In this document: positions 6,423 to 42,134 of the stretch, in pieces
Layout: each line of letters opens with the position of its first letter
Numbering within the stretch: the first letter of the stretch is position 1
DNA from: Spirochaetia bacterium
GTDB lineage: Bacteria; Spirochaetota; Spirochaetia; SZUA-6; Bin103
DNA length: 64,000 bases
Assembly: GCA_965208575.1 (NCBI GenBank)
Contig: CBDBOV010000004.1
Location: 384,001 to 448,000, forward strand
Direction of reading: 5' to 3'
Made by a program: the position numbers and the translations under genes
The notes under the pieces: generated by a model
The model's input: the letters and a program-made list of their open reading frames with translations, nothing else
Told to the model about the DNA's origin: nothing
The model's database searches: none

Positions 6423-6824
6423 GTGAGGTGGATCCTGCTCGATACCAACGCGTACAGTGCGTACCGACGCGGCAACTCGGATGTGCTGGATGCGCTTGGC
6501 AGGGCCGAAAGGGTGTTCATGTCGGTGTTTGTTCTGGGCGAACTCCTGTACGGCTTCCGCGGTGGCAATCGATATGTCCAGAACCGGCGTGAACTCGGTG
6601 CTTTTCTCGACAAGCCATCGGTGTTCGTGGCCACGGCTACCGACGAAACGTCCGAGCAATTCGCGGTAACCAAGGAGGCCCTCCGCCAAGCCGGCACGCC
6701 GCTACCCATGAACGACGTGTGGATCGCCTCGCATTGCCTTCAGTTGGGCGCCACCATGGTCACGCTCGACGGACACTTCGGCAACGTCCCGGGACTACGC
6801 GTCTGGCCGCCGGCCGGCGCATGA
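6423..6824 (+). CDS. vapC: VapC-family PIN-domain toxin
   Basis: ILLDTNAY, GELLYGF, PMNDVWIA, TLDGHF acidic PIN motifs. Confidence 0.92.
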   Translation: MRWILLDTNAYSAYRRGNSDVLDALGRAERVFMSVFVLGELLYGFRGGNRYVQNRRELGAFLDKPSVFVATATDETSEQFAVTKEALRQAGTPLPMNDVWIASHCLQLGATMVTLDGHFGNVPGLRVWPPAGA

Positions 6825-6858
6825 GAAACAGCACACTGGGGAGTGACCGTACAGACTC

Positions 6859-8322: not shown

Positions 8323-9240
8323 CTATCGGCCCAGTCCAGCCCCACGTCCCCTGAGCCGCGGATCGAGCAGGTCGCGCACGGCGTCGCCGAACATGTTCAG
8401 GCTGTAGATGGTAACGGTCAGGCAAAGACCTGGCCAGAGGGCCAGCCACGGCGCCGCCTCCATGTATTTGCGCCCTTCCCGGCTCAGCATGCCTCCCCAG
8501 TCAGGAATTGCGGGCGGCAGACCGAAGCCCAGGTAGCCCAGCGAAGCCAGAGCCATGATAACGCCGCCTACACTGGTGCTGAATGAAATGATTATGACGG
8601 GTGTGATATTGGGCAAGACGTGGCGTAAGAATGACCTCCATTTCGACGAACCGACGGCCTCCGCCACCACAAAATAGATACTCTCCTTGATGCCGATCAC
8701 GGCGCTCCTGATTACGCGCGCGCCAGCTATACCTCCTGATATACCCAGGATCAGGATTATCTGCACGAGACCCTTCCCCACTATGGAGATGACCGTCAAC
8801 ATGAGCAGCAATCCCGGGAACGCCATCCAGGAGTCGACAAATCTCTGTACGATCAGATCCAGCTTACCACCCACGAATCCGGAAACGCCGCCTACCAGGG
8901 TACTGATGAGGACACTGAGCGTGGTCACCGTCAGACCGACAAGTACGGAAACACGAGCCCCGAATATGACACGGCTGAGAACGTCTCGTCCGGTTTGGTC
9001 GGTACCCAGTAGATATTTGGAGGACGGGCCCAAGAGCCTGTCTGCCAGGTGCATTTCCTTGTATGGATAAGGGGCTAATTCGCCCCCGAACACAGCCACC
9101 ACAATCAATAGGAGTATGACGATTCCGCTGGCCATGCCCAGTGGCTTCTGGCGGGCCAGCCTGACGAAGAAATCGGCCACGGCACTACGGCTCTTTGGCG
9201 TACCTGCCGGTGAGGATGGCGCGGTACCAGCACTACTCAT
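8323..9240 (-). CDS. Dpp/Opp-type ABC permease (C subunit)
   Basis: LGTDQTGRDVLSR, EAA-like loop, GDAVRDLLDPR. Confidence 0.93.
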   Translation of the reverse strand: MSSAGTAPSSPAGTPKSRSAVADFFVRLARQKPLGMASGIVILLLIVVAVFGGELAPYPYKEMHLADRLLGPSSKYLLGTDQTGRDVLSRVIFGARVSVLVGLTVTTLSVLISTLVGGVSGFVGGKLDLIVQRFVDSWMAFPGLLLMLTVISIVGKGLVQIILILGISGGIAGARVIRSAVIGIKESIYFVVAEAVGSSKWRSFLRHVLPNITPVIIISFSTSVGGVIMALASLGYLGFGLPPAIPDWGGMLSREGRKYMEAAPWLALWPGLCLTVTIYSLNMFGDAVRDLLDPRLRGRGAGLGR

Positions 9241-36585: not shown

Positions 36586-36848
36586 CTTTGTACCTCCAGG
36601 AGCGACGCACGTGTGGCGCATCACGATGACCGACGCCACGTCCGTCCACTGTTGTCCGCGATGGTAGAGGCCACCCGGGCAGCGGTCAAGCCGGCTGACC
36701 GGAACGGCCGAAGCTGAGCCGAGCCACCTGGGCTCCGTCGCCGCAGCGGCCCGGGGCCGCGCATCCCACCGGGACACACAGCCACGACTGACTGACGACA
36801 CGCGCGCAGGTGTGACCCCATTTTGTGGATAGTAGGAAGACGAAAAAA

Positions 36849-36889
36849 GACCTCCCAGTCGATGGCATGATGGCTACGACTGGGAGGTC
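36849..36889 (+). promoter_or_regulatory. 13-bp inverted repeat covering the transposase RBS; terminator-like on minus strand
   Basis: GACCTCCCAGTCG/CGACTGGGAGGTC; GGGAGG precedes ATG 36897; A6 tract on the left. Confidence 0.7.
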
Positions 36890-37082
36890 AAACAAAATGA
36901 GTGAGGAATTGGTGACTCGATTCGTCGAGTATGTCAAGGCCGGACACGGCGCTGATGGTGGCGGTGGTGCCAGATCGGGAGCGTGCGCGATGCTGCGCCT
37001 GGAGGGACGGGACGCTCCTGCACAGCGACTTAGATTCGGGGGGCTCGCCAGCTCCAACTGGCGAGTTCCGTGCCGCTTTCCC

Positions 37083-38006
37083 CTACTCTACCACCTTTCG
37101 GCGGGGACCGTAAGGTCCCCTCGGACCCGGCTTCGGCGTCCGGGCGTCGATCAACTCGACCACTTCGCGCGCCGTCCACCGCTGCCGCGCCACGCCGGCC
37201 GCCATCGCCGGCGTGGTGCCCGTGCCCCACTTCTTCTTCAGGCTCATGTGCGGCCGGCAGAAATTGTAGGCCATCGACCACATGGCGAAGCTGTGCACAT
37301 GGTTCTCCAGCTTCTTGGAGAAGGCGTTGGTCAGCCGCGTGAACCGCCGCTGTGACATGCGGATGGTCAGGTTCTGCCGCTCCGCGTAACTCGTGCTGAT
37401 CAGGTCCAGGTTCGGCGCGCCCTGCACGATGATCCGCTCCACCCCGTTGCACTCGCCGGGGCTGTACCGCCGGTGCGCGGCGGTGGCTTCCTCGCCGTCG
37501 CCCTTCGAGGTGCCGTAGTGCTTCACCAGCATGGCATAGTCCACGTCCCCCGCGAATGCCGCGTCCACGGCCTCCAGGTACGCCGAGTGCCCGTCCGTGG
37601 TGAGCTGCACCCGGTTCCGTAGCCGCTGCTCCAGGTCGATCATGAACGGGATCGCCGTCTGCGCCGAGCGATCGCCGACGATCCATGACGCCAGCAGCTT
37701 CGTGTGCGCGCACAGCGCCGTCCACGTCCACACGTCTCCGGCACCCCGCGGCGGGTTCTTCGCCCGCTCCACGTTCTTGTTCTTCGCGTAGATGAACGAC
37801 CAGATTTCGTCGATCTCCAAGCGGGAGCACGGCAGGTTGCGCAGCACCTCGTCCTGGTACTCTGCGCAGATCGGGCCGGCGTCTCTGATGAACTTCCCTA
37901 CCGTGTGCTTCGCGCAGCCGACGATACGCATGGTGGCGGCCATGCTGTTCCCCTCGACCAGGAGCTGGTACATAAGTGCCCTGCGTTCGATAGGTAACTT
38001 GTTCAT
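37083..38006 (-). CDS. IS1-family DDE transposase
   Basis: N-terminal HTH (LVEGNSM), IDEIWSF, LTTDGH, STSYAERQNLTIRM..RRFTRLTNAFSKK, TPAMAAG; TTGCGC-N17-TATATT promoter. Confidence 0.92.
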   Translation of the reverse strand: MNKLPIERRALMYQLLVEGNSMAATMRIVGCAKHTVGKFIRDAGPICAEYQDEVLRNLPCSRLEIDEIWSFIYAKNKNVERAKNPPRGAGDVWTWTALCAHTKLLASWIVGDRSAQTAIPFMIDLEQRLRNRVQLTTDGHSAYLEAVDAAFAGDVDYAMLVKHYGTSKGDGEEATAAHRRYSPGECNGVERIIVQGAPNLDLISTSYAERQNLTIRMSQRRFTRLTNAFSKKLENHVHSFAMWSMAYNFCRPHMSLKKKWGTGTTPAMAAGVARQRWTAREVVELIDARTPKPGPRGPYGPRRKVVE

Positions 38007-38419
38007 CGTGAATGAAATATACTACTTCATATGGTGTTGCGCAAGCGAAATATCAATGTTTCAATGGAAAGGGCCGCCGGGGATGTGGTATCCTCGCCGG
38101 CGGCCCTGCTCGTGAATCATGGGGGTGGATTGGTTCGCCAGCGGGCTCCAAACTCAGCCTAGCCTGACCTTCCTACTTATCCCGTTGATTTGACCGCGGG
38201 ATTCTCTGGTTCATCCAGATAAGTTGTTACCATGAAACAAGATAGGTTCACGGAAGTGGACTCTCCTCTTGAGAGGATCAGTGTATACACTGAATATATC
38301 GAGCGCCGTGCCGGACAGCTTCCTCAATACTACTCGAAGTATCCCCTCTTCGATCCTTCCGACCCACTCATGCCGGTTCTCCTTGACTGTCTCCGTACTA
38401 AGTGTATACACTGATTGCA

Positions 38420-40016
38420 GTGGCCACCCTCCAGAAAAAGGTCTCCCGCGGGCACACCTACTGGCAGATCGTCGAGTCCAGACGCGTCAACGGCAAACCA
38501 CGTCCCATCGTCCTCGAACATCTCGGCAGCGCAGAGAAGTTGCTCCAGCGCCTCCGTGAGGCTCCCACCCGACCGGCAAAGGCGAAGGTCATTCAGTTCG
38601 GTGCGTTGGCCGCGCTCTGGCAGATCGCCCAAGAGTTGGATGTGGTGGGCCTTATCGATACCCAGGTCCCCAAGCGAGACCAAGGACTGTCCTGCGGACA
38701 GTATCTGCTGGTGGCGGCGCTGAACCGTTGTGTGGCCGCCTCCAGCAAGGCTTCTCTGTACCAGTGGTATCGACGCACGGTGTTGAATCGGCTGCTCCCC
38801 GCTGCACAGCGCTCGCTCGCCAGTCAGCGATTCTGGGATCACATGAACATGCTCGACAGCGCTGCCATCGGCGCGATTGAGCAACAACTGGCGCAGCGGG
38901 TGATCGACCACTACCGGATCGATCTGCGACCGCTCATCTTCGATGCGACCAACTTCGATACGTTCATCGACAGTCGCACCGTCAGTGCACTGGCACAACG
39001 TGGCCACGCGAAAAGCAAACGCGCCGATCTGCGGATCCTGGGCTTGGCACTCCTGGTAAGCTGCGACTACCACATTCCGCTGCTCTCACACCCGTATCCG
39101 GGAAATCAGAATGACGCCGCGATGTTCTCGAGCTTGATCGAGACGCTGATCAGCCGCTGCAAGCAGTTGGCCCAGGACTGCGAAGATGTCACGCTGGTGT
39201 TCGATGGCGGCAACACCTCGAGAGCGAATATCGAGGCGCTGCAAGCCGGCCCATACCATTTCGTCACCTCCTTGACCGTGACTAAGCACGAGGATCTGCT
39301 GGCGGTTCCCGCCGGCAGGTTTCACTCCTTCACTGACCCACGGCTGGCCGGGGTGACCGCTTACCGCAGCGACAAGGTGATCTGGGGTGAGCGCCGCACC
39401 GTGGTGGTCACCAACAGTCGCCGGTTGCTGGACGGGCAGCTGGCTGGGATCAAACCAGCGCTTGCAACGCCGGCGCTTGGGCAAACGCATCCTGTGCACC
39501 GACAACGAGTCGTGCAGAGCGCGAATCCGACGGCGTGCCAGTTTTCGATTTCGCACCGATTGGGCAGCGTACCAGCGCTTGCAACGCCGGCGCTTGGGCA
39601 AACGCATCCTGTGCACCGACAACGAGTCGTGGAGCGACCAGGAGATCATCTTGGCCAGCCGCGCTCAACATCACGTGGAGCGGGCGTTCAAGCAGATGAA
39701 GAATCCCCACTGGGTGAGCTTCTCGCCGACCTTCCACTGGACCGATCAGAAGCTGCGCGTACACGTGTTCTATTGTGTGTTGGCACTGCTGCTGAGTTCG
39801 CTGCTGCAACGCAAGGCGGCCGACGGCGGACAACTCCTTACCATCGAGCAACTACTGACGGAACTCAGCGGCGTGACCGAAGTGGTCAACCTCTACGCCG
39901 CGCCTGAGCCGGCCACCAGAGGGCGCTACCGGGCTCAATACGTGCTCTCTGAACGGTCGTCCCTGCAAGACAAACTGTGCCGCCTACTTGACGTATACCG
40001 ACACGCCCATCCCTGA
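38420..40016 (+). pseudogene. IS1634-family transposase, frameshifted
   Basis: YWQIVESRRVNGKPRP, FDATNF, RGHAKSKRADL, VFDGG in one frame; ILCTD, VERAFKQMK, HWTDQKLRVHVFYCVLAL in another. Confidence 0.88.
39454..39631 (+). repeat. 61-bp exact direct repeat (39454-39514 and 39571-39631)
   Basis: ACCAGCGCTTGCAACGCCGGCGCTTGGGCAAACGCATCCTGTGCACCGACAACGAGTCGTG occurs twice. Confidence 0.95.
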
Positions 40017-40179
40017 CAGCACCACGGTCAGTGTATACAAGCCCCGTCCGACAGGATAGCGAGTAACTTGCTATCCTAAAATGACTTATCCACTCAAACT
40101 ACCAGCCACCCGAAATAACTAGGAAACTCACGCTAGCCGGGGTTCGATTCCCCGCACCTCCACTACATCACTGATGCCG

Positions 40180-40392
40180 TTATGGTGTACGCGCGGCGCG
40201 CGCCTTCTGCGCGATCTCCCGGCGCCGCTCCGGGGTCAGGGCGCGTGCCCGCGCGCGTGCCGCCTTCGTCTGTTGGGACGGGCGCGGCGGGTTCAGGATT
40301 TCGTCCTTGTCATTGGGCAGTTCGCCGGTGGCTATACGCCCGATCAAAGTGGCCCTCTCTGCAGGGTCTTTCGGCCTCCGGTGGATGGCCAT
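40180..40392 (-). CDS. Small basic protein of the type often seen beside IS1-like transposases
   Basis: RBS AGGAGG; MAIHRRPKDP...IATGE...ARARALTPERRREIAQKARAAR. Confidence 0.82.
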   Translation of the reverse strand: MAIHRRPKDPAERATLIGRIATGELPNDKDEILNPPRPSQQTKAARARARALTPERRREIAQKARAARTP

Positions 40393-40471
40393 ATCTCTAC
40401 CTCCTGAAATGAATAAAACGCCTGTGCGTTTGTCCTTGCATAGTCTTACCCATTGCGCCACACTAAGTCAA

Positions 40472-40601
40472 CGCTACGACAGGCCAGTTTCCCGATGCCG
40501 GGTTGCCTGGTCGAATAAGCGCGTCCTGGCGCTGGGGGTCGCTCCCCTGGCGCCGCGCGAATAGCCAGGGTCCTTCTCGATGTAGCAGGTCTGTCGTAGC
40601 G
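40472..40601 (+). ncRNA. Putative rod-shaped structured RNA or 5' leader
   Basis: 14-bp closing stem, nested helices; begins at the expected +1 of TTGCAT-N17-CACACT (40436-40464). Confidence 0.55.
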
Positions 40602-40637
40602 GCAATGGCCCGGCACCTTCCGGGCCGGGAGGCACGC

Positions 40638-40967
40638 ATGACCAAGATCACGGCTACTCTCCTGTTCCCGACCGAACACGGCGAGATTGAGGTTTCGCCC
40701 TCGGACGTGCTGGCTGCCGCCATGACAGGGCTCGCACTCAAGGGCGTGGCACCCAAGAAGGCAGCCCGGCGCGCATACAGATACATGGTTGAGTTGCTCC
40801 AAGAGATGGACCGTCGATCCCCTCCAGAGCCATCAGCACCACCCGCATCGCCAACCCCGCCGCCGCGCCTCGCTCGTGCCCCCCAGGAGCCCGGCGGTCG
40901 ATACGACGGACGGCCCGCCGGCGAGTGGGAACGCCACGAAGCGAAGCGCAAGCGCGAGCACCAGTGA
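40638..40967 (+). CDS. Hypothetical passenger protein (109 aa, Pro-rich C-terminus)
   Basis: RBS GGGAGG; MTKITATLLFPTEHGEIEV... Confidence 0.6.
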   Translation: MTKITATLLFPTEHGEIEVSPSDVLAAAMTGLALKGVAPKKAARRAYRYMVELLQEMDRRSPPEPSAPPASPTPPPRLARAPQEPGGRYDGRPAGEWERHEAKRKREHQ

Positions 40968-41102
40968 TATAGTGGGCGGGGGCTGGCGCGCCCAGCAACG
41001 CCCCACCAAGCCATTTTCTTAGCCAAGTTATGGTCCGGCGAGGTATGGCGTGGCCGGTTCGGCATCCGCCAGCCCCCTATTTTTCAAATTGACCCACTAC
41101 CA

Positions 41103-42134
41103 CACGGCCTGTATGGGATGCTCACGGTGGTGCGCGCCTACTACGCCAGCAGCACGGGTCGGGGGCTGGCGCCGCTGGATGAACGGCTGGGGATCGGGCA
41201 CGGGCACACGCCGGCGTGTGAGTACCATGTGGCGCGGTTCGTCGGCGACAATCCCTACCAGAGGAGCCGGGAACATTTTTGTCAGATCTTCCGCCCCGAC
41301 GGCACCGAAGAGATCTCACTGCACAAGATCGAACAGATGGTCGATGGGCTTGGGGTGCGGCTGGAGCACGAACGTCAGGAGGAGATCACGGCTCAGTTCG
41401 AGGACGGCAAGCGCATAGCGGTCGCCGATGAGATCACCGGCACGATGGTGGTGTGCATCGATGCAGGGAAGGCGCCAACGAAGGGCAACGAACGTATAGA
41501 TGACGACAAGAGAAAGAGATACGACCGTGAGTTCCGAGACGTCAAGGTGGCGAGCGTGTCGGCGTTGGAGTGGGATGAGGTAAATCAGGAGGCACGCTGC
41601 AGCGACAGTTCCTACGTGCTGGGCATCGAGCATGCCGATCAGTTTTTTCAGCGTATCTGGGTGGAGATGAACCGGCGCAGCCGCGATCTGAGCTCGCTAC
41701 GTTTGGTGTTCATCGGCGACGGGGCTGACTGGATCTGGCGCCGTGTGGGAGACCTGGACCACGAGCGCAGTCGCCACATCCTGGACTTCTGTCACGCCGC
41801 CGATCACCTCGCGGATGTGTGCAAGATCGTCGACGGAGAGGGCAGTGATCGCTTCTATGAACGCTTCCAACGCTGGCGCGGCATCCTCCGCGAGGGCGGG
41901 GCCTCCGAGCTGATCGTCGAGCTGAAGCAGTTGCGCGACACCGCCGACAGCGGCAAGGCGCGCGATTACGTCGTCGCGGCCCGCATGAAGCAGAGCGGCA
42001 TGACCTGGACCCTGGCGGGAGCACAGCACATGCTTCAGATCCGTGCATCTCTCATGAGCTCGCGGTTTGCACGCGACTTCCAGCACTCACTTCCAGCACG
42101 TCCCGAGATTGAGGAGCTGCCGGCTGCCGCCTGA
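41103..42134 (+). pseudogene. ISKra4-family transposase, 3' part (5' stub at 36897-36950), internally deleted
   Basis: RAYY, PLDERLG, VCIDAG, IGDGADWIW, ILDFCHAADHL, RMKQSGMTW; the usual IGSGxxES segment is absent. Confidence 0.85.

Follow-up and report, generated by a model that had tools for sequence, protein, structure and literature searches.

Which passenger an IS1-family insertion sequence (IS) carries, and whether that passenger could act on its host, is the question raised by a locus in a 64,000-nt stretch of the genome of a Spirochaetia bacterium (GenBank assembly GCA_965208575.1, contig CBDBOV010000004.1, positions 384,001 to 448,000 of the forward strand; hereafter the window, whose numbering is used unless another contig or locus is named). 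An original prediction made from these letters had described an IS1-family element whose cargo is mainly non-coding RNA, and its overall layout is seen in the list of open reading frames (ORFs), in the raw sequence and in a repeat search. Window positions 36952-41101 are a passenger-carrying IS of the IS1 family, itself nested in an ISKra4-like IS, and the passenger is a non-coding tRNA-like gene with homologues in related elements of two other genomes, among which compensatory changes are observed. The best explanation taken whole, a passenger IS1-family element whose RNA combines an alanine acceptor with a tryptophan-type loop, anatomy and proposed function together, has in our judgement an even chance of being correct. 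Its anatomical part, taken alone, is held with high confidence, and the function proposed for the RNA is tentative.

The RNA gene is split in the window by an IS1634-type IS, and removal by script of that IS together with one CTAG yields a gene of 68 nt on the plus strand (38121-38158 joined to 40133-40162). The 5' part (38121-38158) provides the 5' strand of the acceptor, a single-stranded D-loop analogue, the 5' strand of a central helix and the loop CUCCAAA, while the 3' part (40133-40162) provides the 3' strand of the central helix, a T arm with loop TTCGATT and the 3' strand of the acceptor, with U70 and a discriminator A. The mini-tRNA that had been proposed here is borne out, as the de-interrupted sequence folds into acceptor, central and T helices; in the minimum-energy fold the acceptor has 7 bp and the T stem 5 bp, and between them come a short unpaired segment and then a central helix closed by a loop of 7-8 nt. 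G3:U70 and A73 in the acceptor constitute the alanine identity set, the sequence feature of a substrate of alanyl-tRNA synthetase (AlaRS), and by these identity elements the ~68-nt RNA is predicted to be of the alanine-accepting type and looks chargeable. Its acceptor stem is that of the host tmRNA and its loop CUCCAAA is the anticodon loop of the host tRNA-Trp; a match to the T arm of the Rfam tmRNA model is located at 40137-40154 (15.4 bits). ARAGORN reports the de-interrupted gene as Trp(cca) in mitochondrial mode and as an undetermined tRNA with -ps80, and scans of the uninterrupted window with ARAGORN and with Rfam at gathering thresholds called no RNA gene. The RNA does not fall into any of three established classes. 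Compared with canonical elongator tRNAs (Rfam RF00005), the copy in related genome G018 scores 28.4 bits against a cut-off of 29 and both it and the window RNA have no D stem; compared with tmRNA (RF00023), only the T arm matches and ~68 nt are too short for a tag frame; and compared with allo-tRNAs, the acceptor/T arrangement is 7/5 and the variable arm is absent. Elsewhere in the genome, 80-100-nt ARAGORN calls of tRNA-Ala(cgc/agc) or undetermined type (e.g. C5:308614-308693, C6:15441-15520 and C6:260602-260681) have no tRNA-like T loop and are probably false positives in G+C-rich DNA.

Reconstruction of the gene depends on the ends of the interrupting IS (38159-40136, plus strand), which has CTAG at both termini (38159-38162 and 40133-40136), one of which is the duplicated target. 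The IS belongs to the IS1634 family, scoring 154.8 bits against the NCBIfam model (NF033559; cut-off 100), and whole-genome BLAST detects at least nine further copies at 98-99.9% identity (contigs C1, C3, C4, C5 and C6). The IS1634 insertion of the original prediction is thereby established by family score, copy number and defined ends, and an IS present in at least ten copies of 98-99.9% identity is highly active in this genome. Eight full copies measure 2082 bp from CTAG to CTAG, and one genomic copy is flanked by TTAG on both sides. The G018 homologue of the RNA gene aligns with the split gene only when a single CTAG is retained, and CTAG is therefore a 4-bp target duplication; in the RNA gene the insertion point is a CTAG on the 3' side of the central helix. 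The window copy measures 1978 bp and falls 104 bp short of the 2082-bp form, which may be due to assembly at a 64-nt direct repeat within the IS (39454-39517 and 39571-39634). Its transposase frame is broken as assembled and yields 501 aa, whereas a full copy encodes 572 aa. Both IS junctions are spanned by source-sample contigs of DNA or unknown kind, and the uninterrupted form is absent among the joints listed. Alternative ends at TGTATACACTGA repeats, examined with ARAGORN over 1050 junction combinations, are ruled out by the other genomic copies.

Searching 61 related genomes with the IS1-family transposase and comparing the resulting loci with the mini sequence revealed intact RNA homologues adjoining the two closest transposases, those of G018 (56% identical) and G001 (83% identical). 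The G018 homologue is 67 nt long and 89.7% identical to the window RNA over 68 nt, and the surrounding non-coding DNA does not align. It is located inside an element (L027:4249 to 8081) with both repeats and a perfect 8-bp duplication, CGCGCCTC, in which the internal segment is inverted compared with the common arrangement and an ORF of 448 aa is carried as an additional passenger. In Rfam this copy scores 39.5 bits against mascRNA (cut-off 42.5) and 28.4 against tRNA (cut-off 29). The G001 homologue, of 73 nt, is called tRNA-Trp(cca) by ARAGORN and scores 42.7 bits against tRNA-Sec (cut-off 47). Its fold includes a D-type hairpin of 6 bp and a variable loop of 5 nt, and its 5-bp anticodon stem differs completely in sequence. 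The acceptor keeps G3:U70, its pairs 6 and 7 are altered on both sides, and the stem is that of the host tRNA-Ala(CGC). A model built without G001 (R2) recovers the G001 gene at 38.1 bits, and over 24 genomes of the taxonomic family it otherwise returns ~74-nt matches of 34-36 bits, about one per genome, which are taken to be ordinary tRNA-Ala genes. Of the two repeats of the G001 element, only the one on the side of the transposase is intact, the other being degenerate. This element is also flanked by a 16-nt inverted pair, CGGGTAGCTACTCCCT, at 6820-6836 and 8541-8557, and three DnaA-box-like motifs, TTATCCAC/GTGGATAA, occur between its small-protein gene and the degenerate repeat (L026 8300-8345).

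Minis of the same build are also found apart from the IS. Metagenome contigs were scanned with a pattern in which loop, T arm and 3' acceptor strand are kept constant, and of the eight matches four are ordinary tmRNA 3' ends and the others minis of 66-68 nt (L112, L113, L116 and L110), with no IS1 transposase nearby. Three of these (L112 3670-3737, L113 3479-3546 and L116 1102-1169) are near-invariant, follow a TATAAT box and come from related organisms in which the loci are syntenic with flanks 65-82% identical; the mini there has ybaB-recR-type genes on one side and, on the other, an island that holds a DNA methyltransferase gene and a DUF3800-like ORF, as judged by eye from the ORFs. The L110 mini adjoins genes that by eye are of phage lysis type. 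G3:U70 is present in the window, G018, G001, L110 and L112/L113/L116, with pair 3-65 being G-U in five of five. When the three-helix structure is applied to five intact minis, 96.9% of cells are paired and two-sided changes occur at 9 of 20 pairs; 0 of 500 shuffles reach the mini value and slid controls give 48-61%. These figures are to be read with the alignment in mind, since it has five rows of which three are near-identical, was selected by a pattern with loop and T arm fixed, and was scored on a structure derived from the same sequences. Carriage by phages was considered and rejected: the strict pattern gave no match in viral contigs, and the 12 matches of a loose pattern include no mini (ten are one unrelated prophage sequence, one is a tRNA-Ser in a cluster and one is unclear).

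The carrier is identified by its transposase, a DDE enzyme of 307 aa encoded by an intact ORF on the minus strand (37083-38006). The IS1-family assignment that had been claimed stands on scores below the cut-offs, both for NCBIfam IS1 (NF033558; E 2.8e-14, 53.5 bits, cut-off 100) and for Pfam DDE_Tnp_IS1 (PF03400; 23.7 bits, cut-off 24.1), together with plasmid-borne relatives 51-53% identical which are publicly annotated 'IS1 family transposase', the small genes beside them being annotated hypothetical. Comparison with G001 indicates purifying selection on the transposase (dN/dS ~0.22) and on the small protein encoded at the other end of the element (~0.18). Starting from an alignment of ten transposases, at least 579 confirmed relatives were obtained in one-genome-per-species data, spanning Alphaproteobacteria, Acidobacteriota, Nitrospirota, Chloroflexota and others, and 80 loci were kept. 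Among 12 elements chosen for having repeat motifs on both sides, terminal repeats of 19-22 bp are present in 12 of 12 and identical 8-bp flanks in 10 of 12, and lengths range from 2.0 to 3.5 kb; according to ORF lists, at least nine of the 12 begin, inside one repeat, with the small-protein gene, which shares its strand with the transposase. The family core comprises a pair of ~19-bp GGTAGTGGGTCA... inverted repeats, an 8-bp target duplication, the ~70-aa basic-protein gene just within one repeat and, at the opposite end, the DDE transposase. Variable passengers occupy the space between the two genes and are mostly HigB-like toxin and HTH/Peptidase_M78 genes. A further IS1-family transposase, 46% identical and with its own small-protein gene, occurs outside the window at C6:1391752-1394178.

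The small gene of the window (40183-40392, minus strand; stop codon 40180-40182) encodes a basic protein of 70 aa and has AGGAGG 7 nt before its ATG. The protein exists as predicted and belongs to a conserved family, but it had been counted as cargo, and as relatives carry it as their first gene it belongs to the core of the IS family at large. By tblastn it is present in 42 of the 80 family loci, across many phyla, and in 12 further loci of the L007-L027 set with duplicate loci counted once; since most of the 42 are without a tRNA-like gene, it is not an RNA-specific partner. Its alignment displays conserved RPxD at the N-terminus and ARA..LTPE.R.EIA..A..R motifs at the C-terminus, its database homologues are all unnamed or 'hypothetical', and no Pfam or NCBIfam family matches it. 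An AlphaFold2 model has four helices (pLDDT 82.7) and finds no fold match in the PDB at E <= 0.001; the nearest ESM Atlas clusters (0.88-0.89), labelled 'hypothetical' and 'Histone H1 family', are a lead only. Outside the window, a decayed copy with an in-frame stop lies beside a family inverted repeat (C4:1238964-1239100).

tRNA genes also occur in other members of the family. The loci were searched with ARAGORN, Rfam and a general tRNA model, R1; over 98 loci R1 yielded nothing beyond the ARAGORN and Rfam finds, its training rows matching by construction. A tRNA(-like) gene lies within ~1 kb upstream of the transposase in four of the 80 loci (L028, which is the G001 element, L050, L096 and L105). 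L050 has two, a class I tRNA with anticodon UAG that is convergent with the small gene, 15 nt after it, and by eye has a body resembling tRNA-Glu, plus a class II Leu(UAG) tRNA. L096 contains a Sec-like tRNA with anticodon UAA (47.7 bits; tRNA-Sec cut-off 47) beside a GNAT acetyltransferase. L050 and L096 are distant members of the family, and in both of them perfect repeats and 8-bp duplications surround the tRNA cargo; L105 has two odd tRNAs, and repeats were not found at that locus. The L096 element (1393-2392 of a Chloroflexota MAG contig) is a complete IS holding the GNAT gene, a 50-aa ORF on the opposite strand and the Sec-like UAA tRNA together. Some GNAT toxins acetylate aminoacyl-tRNAs, and the two genes may represent a toxin/tRNA pairing. 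In five other loci (L032, L072, L093, L095 and L074) ordinary tRNA genes are found 75-340 nt past the end of the transposase match, which may reflect target preference or chance; in L032 and L072, the two cases with a repeat found, they sit outside it, and in L072 the IS lies between two tRNA genes.

What such an RNA might do in the host is the more speculative half of the question. The RNA gene would be transcribed from its own promoter, RNase P would trim the transcript and AlaRS would attach alanine to it, and the charged RNA could then act in trans on translation by inserting alanine at UGG. Given the missing D stem and the G at position 8, the RNA might alternatively be a mimic or decoy that titrates a tRNA-Trp- or tmRNA-recognising factor or toxin. 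Either action could lend the element a selectable effect comparable to that of the toxin-antitoxin passengers of sister elements. The RNA is probably an alanine-accepting tRNA mimic that would act on translation or as a decoy.

Several observations weigh against this proposal. Position 8 is G, not U, and the window RNA has no D stem, so that use by EF-Tu and the ribosome is doubtful; default ARAGORN is silent on both the de-interrupted window gene and the G018 gene, and the Rfam tRNA score of the latter falls just under the cut-off. The limits of the five-row alignment given above apply to the covariation. The RNA is rare, being present in 3 of 24 genomes of the taxonomic family, while the strict pattern is matched in 0 of 401 genomes sampled from the phylum, a sample without the family's other genomes, and only four of the 80 transposase loci have a tRNA(-like) gene upstream. 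Since similar minis occur apart from an IS1 transposase, the tie between RNA and IS is not exclusive. The window copy itself is dead and cannot be active, because its RNA gene is interrupted and its transposase-side repeat is absent. Two "divergent promoter regions" had been described, but a consensus scan for sigma-70-type promoters finds no site in either intergenic region.

The same rarity, the tolerated splitting of the gene in the window and the canonical tRNA features that it lacks would all be expected if the RNA gene were a functionless, hitch-hiking pseudogene that the element had captured as a fragment or chimera from host tRNA-Ala or tmRNA, and the match of the acceptor stems to host alanine acceptors is in keeping with such an origin. 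This is an unlikely explanation in view of conservation: the window and G018 genes are 90% identical over 68 nt, whereas the transposases are 56% identical with dS ~0.8 and the flanks cannot be aligned, the stems are maintained by changes on two sides, and a leader hairpin ahead of the gene is kept in structure, not sequence, in all three elements. In the window this hairpin (38070-38107, plus strand), as previously predicted, lies just upstream of the RNA gene and is G+C-rich, with 14-nt arms (38070-38083 and 38094-38107) that are 93% complementary; the corresponding position in G001 and G018 also holds a G+C-rich hairpin, of a sequence differing from that of the window.

A tmRNA reduced to its tRNA-like domain, working with SmpB on stalled ribosomes or competing with the host tmRNA, would account for an acceptor stem identical to that of the host tmRNA and for the stretch after it, which resembles the D-loop consensus of the Rfam tmRNA model. 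L112, L113, L116 and L110 moreover align end to end to that model with 304 internal positions deleted (29-32 bits, E ~1e-9). All of these scores lie under the cut-off of 47, the G001 homologue is a full cloverleaf with D hairpin and 5-nt variable loop, the loop is the anticodon loop of tRNA-Trp, which a partner of SmpB does not need, and the host retains a full tmRNA of 133 bits, which together make this role improbable. Two other connections with tmRNA were considered and rejected. The split gene is not the host tmRNA gene interrupted by the IS1634-type IS, as the full gene is at C4:152941-153291 (133.2 bits) and only ~68 nt are left after IS removal, nor is it the duplicated att site of an ssrA-integrated island, as its T stem is unlike that of the host tmRNA and the 5' half of the acceptor is also present.

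The position of the gene would be in keeping with a further role. It is encoded on the strand opposite to the small-protein gene and is convergent with it, and no terminator was found after it; the tRNA-like fold could be a processing signal or antisense device, in which RNase P/Z cuts set RNA ends and read-through gives RNA antisense to the small-protein mRNA. The two genes are convergent and near one another in three elements, and in Rfam the G018 copy matches best, at 39.5 bits and below the cut-off of 42.5, the tRNA-like processing module mascRNA. In G018, however, a 61-aa ORF separates the RNA gene from the small gene, and the retention of both an alanine identity set and a Trp loop would be left unexplained. 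We consider this reading quite improbable and return to the alanine-accepting mimic as the preferred one.

The remaining features of the element concern its boundaries and the DNA on either side of the RNA gene. The small-protein side ends in an intact inverted repeat, GGTAGTGGGTCAATTTGAA on the minus strand (41083-41101); the GGTAGTG-type end that had been noted at 41101 is this family repeat (GGTAGTGGGTCA... in reverse complement). On the transposase side no inverted repeat with six or fewer mismatches in 19 was found on either strand of 36800-37200, so that the window copy does not have the repeats at both ends that its relatives have. The insert is bordered directly by ACACGGCG on the left (36944-36951) and ACACGGCC on the right (41102-41109), a possible 8-bp target duplication read from the letters themselves, identical at 7 of 8 positions as against the perfect 8-bp duplications of relatives. 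Between the presumed boundary and the transposase stop are 131 nt (36952-37082) that are unique in the genome and unrelated to the G001 element, homology with which begins at 37101. The target was the left end of an ISKra4-like IS (36849-36950, plus strand), comprising a hairpin with inverted repeat (36849-36889) and an ATG at 36897 with 18 codons, a hairpin-plus-MSE..LVT start which matches an intact ISKra4-like relative elsewhere in the genome. The relative, of which the protein is 44% identical, has 10 intact copies (e.g. C4:144126-145532) with a hairpin before each start codon. The C-terminal part of the split transposase (41103-42134, plus strand), cut off from its own start by the nested element, begins HGLYGM... 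and matches NCBIfam ISKra4 (E 1.8e-29, model positions 82-340). It is without ~75 N-terminal codons that the intact relative has, and a deletion or rearrangement at the left junction is therefore likely. Elsewhere, two IS1-family inverted repeats lie back to back as a 33-bp palindrome with nothing between (C4:147233-147265), which may be a footprint or a minimal non-autonomous element.

Between the transposase gene and the leader hairpin is a block (38007-38069) that is conserved in G001 and contains the palindrome TTGCGCAA at 38037-38044, where it had been placed. Read by eye, a minus-strand transposase promoter could consist of -35 TTGCGC, a 17-nt spacer and -10 TATATT with the ATG 9 nt further on, and TTCAAT in 38007-38069 might be a -10-like element for the plus-strand RNA gene. 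On the far side of the small gene is the rod hairpin (40472-40601), an imperfect long hairpin of 130 nt. The rod RNA of the original prediction is stable (z = -4.58, 0 of 200 shuffles as stable), but it is not conserved as a whole; it occurs once in the genome and is lacking in both G001 and G018. A stretch of just 46 nt, at the 3' arm and the leader beyond it, is found again, solely in genome G006, ahead of a different ORF and next to a degenerate repeat. At that locus (L119 1501-2245) the leader at window 40593-40638 is found at 96% identity before an unrelated ~190-aa ORF with a signal-peptide-like start, the segment ending at a degenerate family repeat; a genome-wide search of G006 and tblastn of L119 gave no significant transposase match. 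The orphan ORF that follows the rod (40638-40967, plus strand; 109 aa with a proline-rich C-terminus) does exist, but has no homologue and no Pfam or NCBIfam family, and is missing from G001 and G018. The "structured end segment" placed at 36951-37083 is not structured beyond chance (z = -1.08; 29 of 200 shuffles fold equally well). That the tRNA mimic, the Arg/Ala-rich protein, the rod RNA and the structured end form one module coupling transposition or maintenance to host translation is very improbable, for although all parts lie between the presumed ends and in the window, G001 and L050 the small gene converges with a tRNA(-like) gene at a distance of 15-36 nt, the small protein is a core gene found in 42 of 80 loci as against 4 of 80 for the tRNA-like gene, the rod and the orphan ORF, itself without homologue, are absent from G001 and G018, and the end is unstructured.

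Insertion sequences are usually viewed as bearing only the genes for their own movement, and known passengers are mostly protein genes. In several independent cases, members of this widespread family whose repeats and target duplications are intact move tRNA or tRNA-like genes as internal cargo, and the long-suspected link of irregular tRNAs to transposable and toxin-antitoxin elements becomes directly testable in a defined unit of 2-4 kb. Should the RNA be active, a minimal mobile element would have a new route by which to touch host translation; should it be inactive, the case still documents shuffling of tRNA-like genes by DDE transposons. A wider proposal, that IS1-family elements and perhaps islands and prophages spread ~68-nt RNAs in which tRNA-Ala or the tRNA-like domain of tmRNA is combined with the tRNA-Trp anticodon loop, and which are charged with alanine and act on host translation, is a rather unlikely one. 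If true, it would mean recoding of UGG to alanine, engagement of SmpB, or a decoy or antidote against toxins that cut or modify tRNA-Trp, and an IS would gain a selectable, addiction-like or protective phenotype through an RNA, not a protein.

Passenger-carrying IS1-family elements and irregular tRNAs near mobile or toxin-antitoxin genes are already known. A limited literature search did not find descriptions of the conserved small first gene of this IS family, of IS1-family elements that enclose tRNA(-like) genes and have their repeats and duplications intact, or of a 7/5, D-stem-less RNA with alanine acceptor and Trp loop. The element may belong to the ISMhu11 group of ISfinder, a term that was not found in the literature searched. 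Known IS1 passenger elements resemble the present ones in their IS1-related DDE transposase, GGnnnTG repeat starts, 8-bp duplications and, passengers included, lengths of 2.0-3.8 kb; a conserved first gene of ~70 aa and tRNA(-like) passengers, as seen here, were not found described for them.

Among tRNA-like molecules, the tRNA-like domain of tmRNA shares with the present RNA a G3:U70 acceptor, a D-loop analogue, a T arm and a helix at the place of the anticodon stem. In contrast to tmRNA, the present RNA is without mRNA-like domain and pseudoknots and has an anticodon-type loop, in a host that owns a full tmRNA. Mitochondrial tmRNAs are known that are reduced to the tRNA-like domain. The pseudo-tRNA 'tRNA-Other' of Bacillus cereus is a tRNA-like small RNA beside mobile DNA and is not a normal elongator; organism, fold and charging differ from those of the present RNA. 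The account of Mukai et al. (2017; PMC5389517) gives G3:U70 with A73 as the main AlaRS determinant and describes irregular or allo-tRNAs of soil bacteria, some of which have G3:U70 with non-alanine anticodons and are alanylated in E. coli, and which were found near toxin-antitoxin genes and transposon-related ORFs. Allo-tRNAs are built with acceptor/T stems of the 8/4 or 9/3 type and a long variable arm, whereas the RNA examined here has a 7/5 arrangement, is without a D stem and a variable arm and lies inside a defined IS. Phages and genomic islands with tRNA genes are likewise mobile DNA bringing their own tRNAs; in the present case, in contrast, the carrier is a DDE IS of 2-4 kb and the RNA that it brings has an alanine acceptor, a tryptophan loop and a reduced fold.

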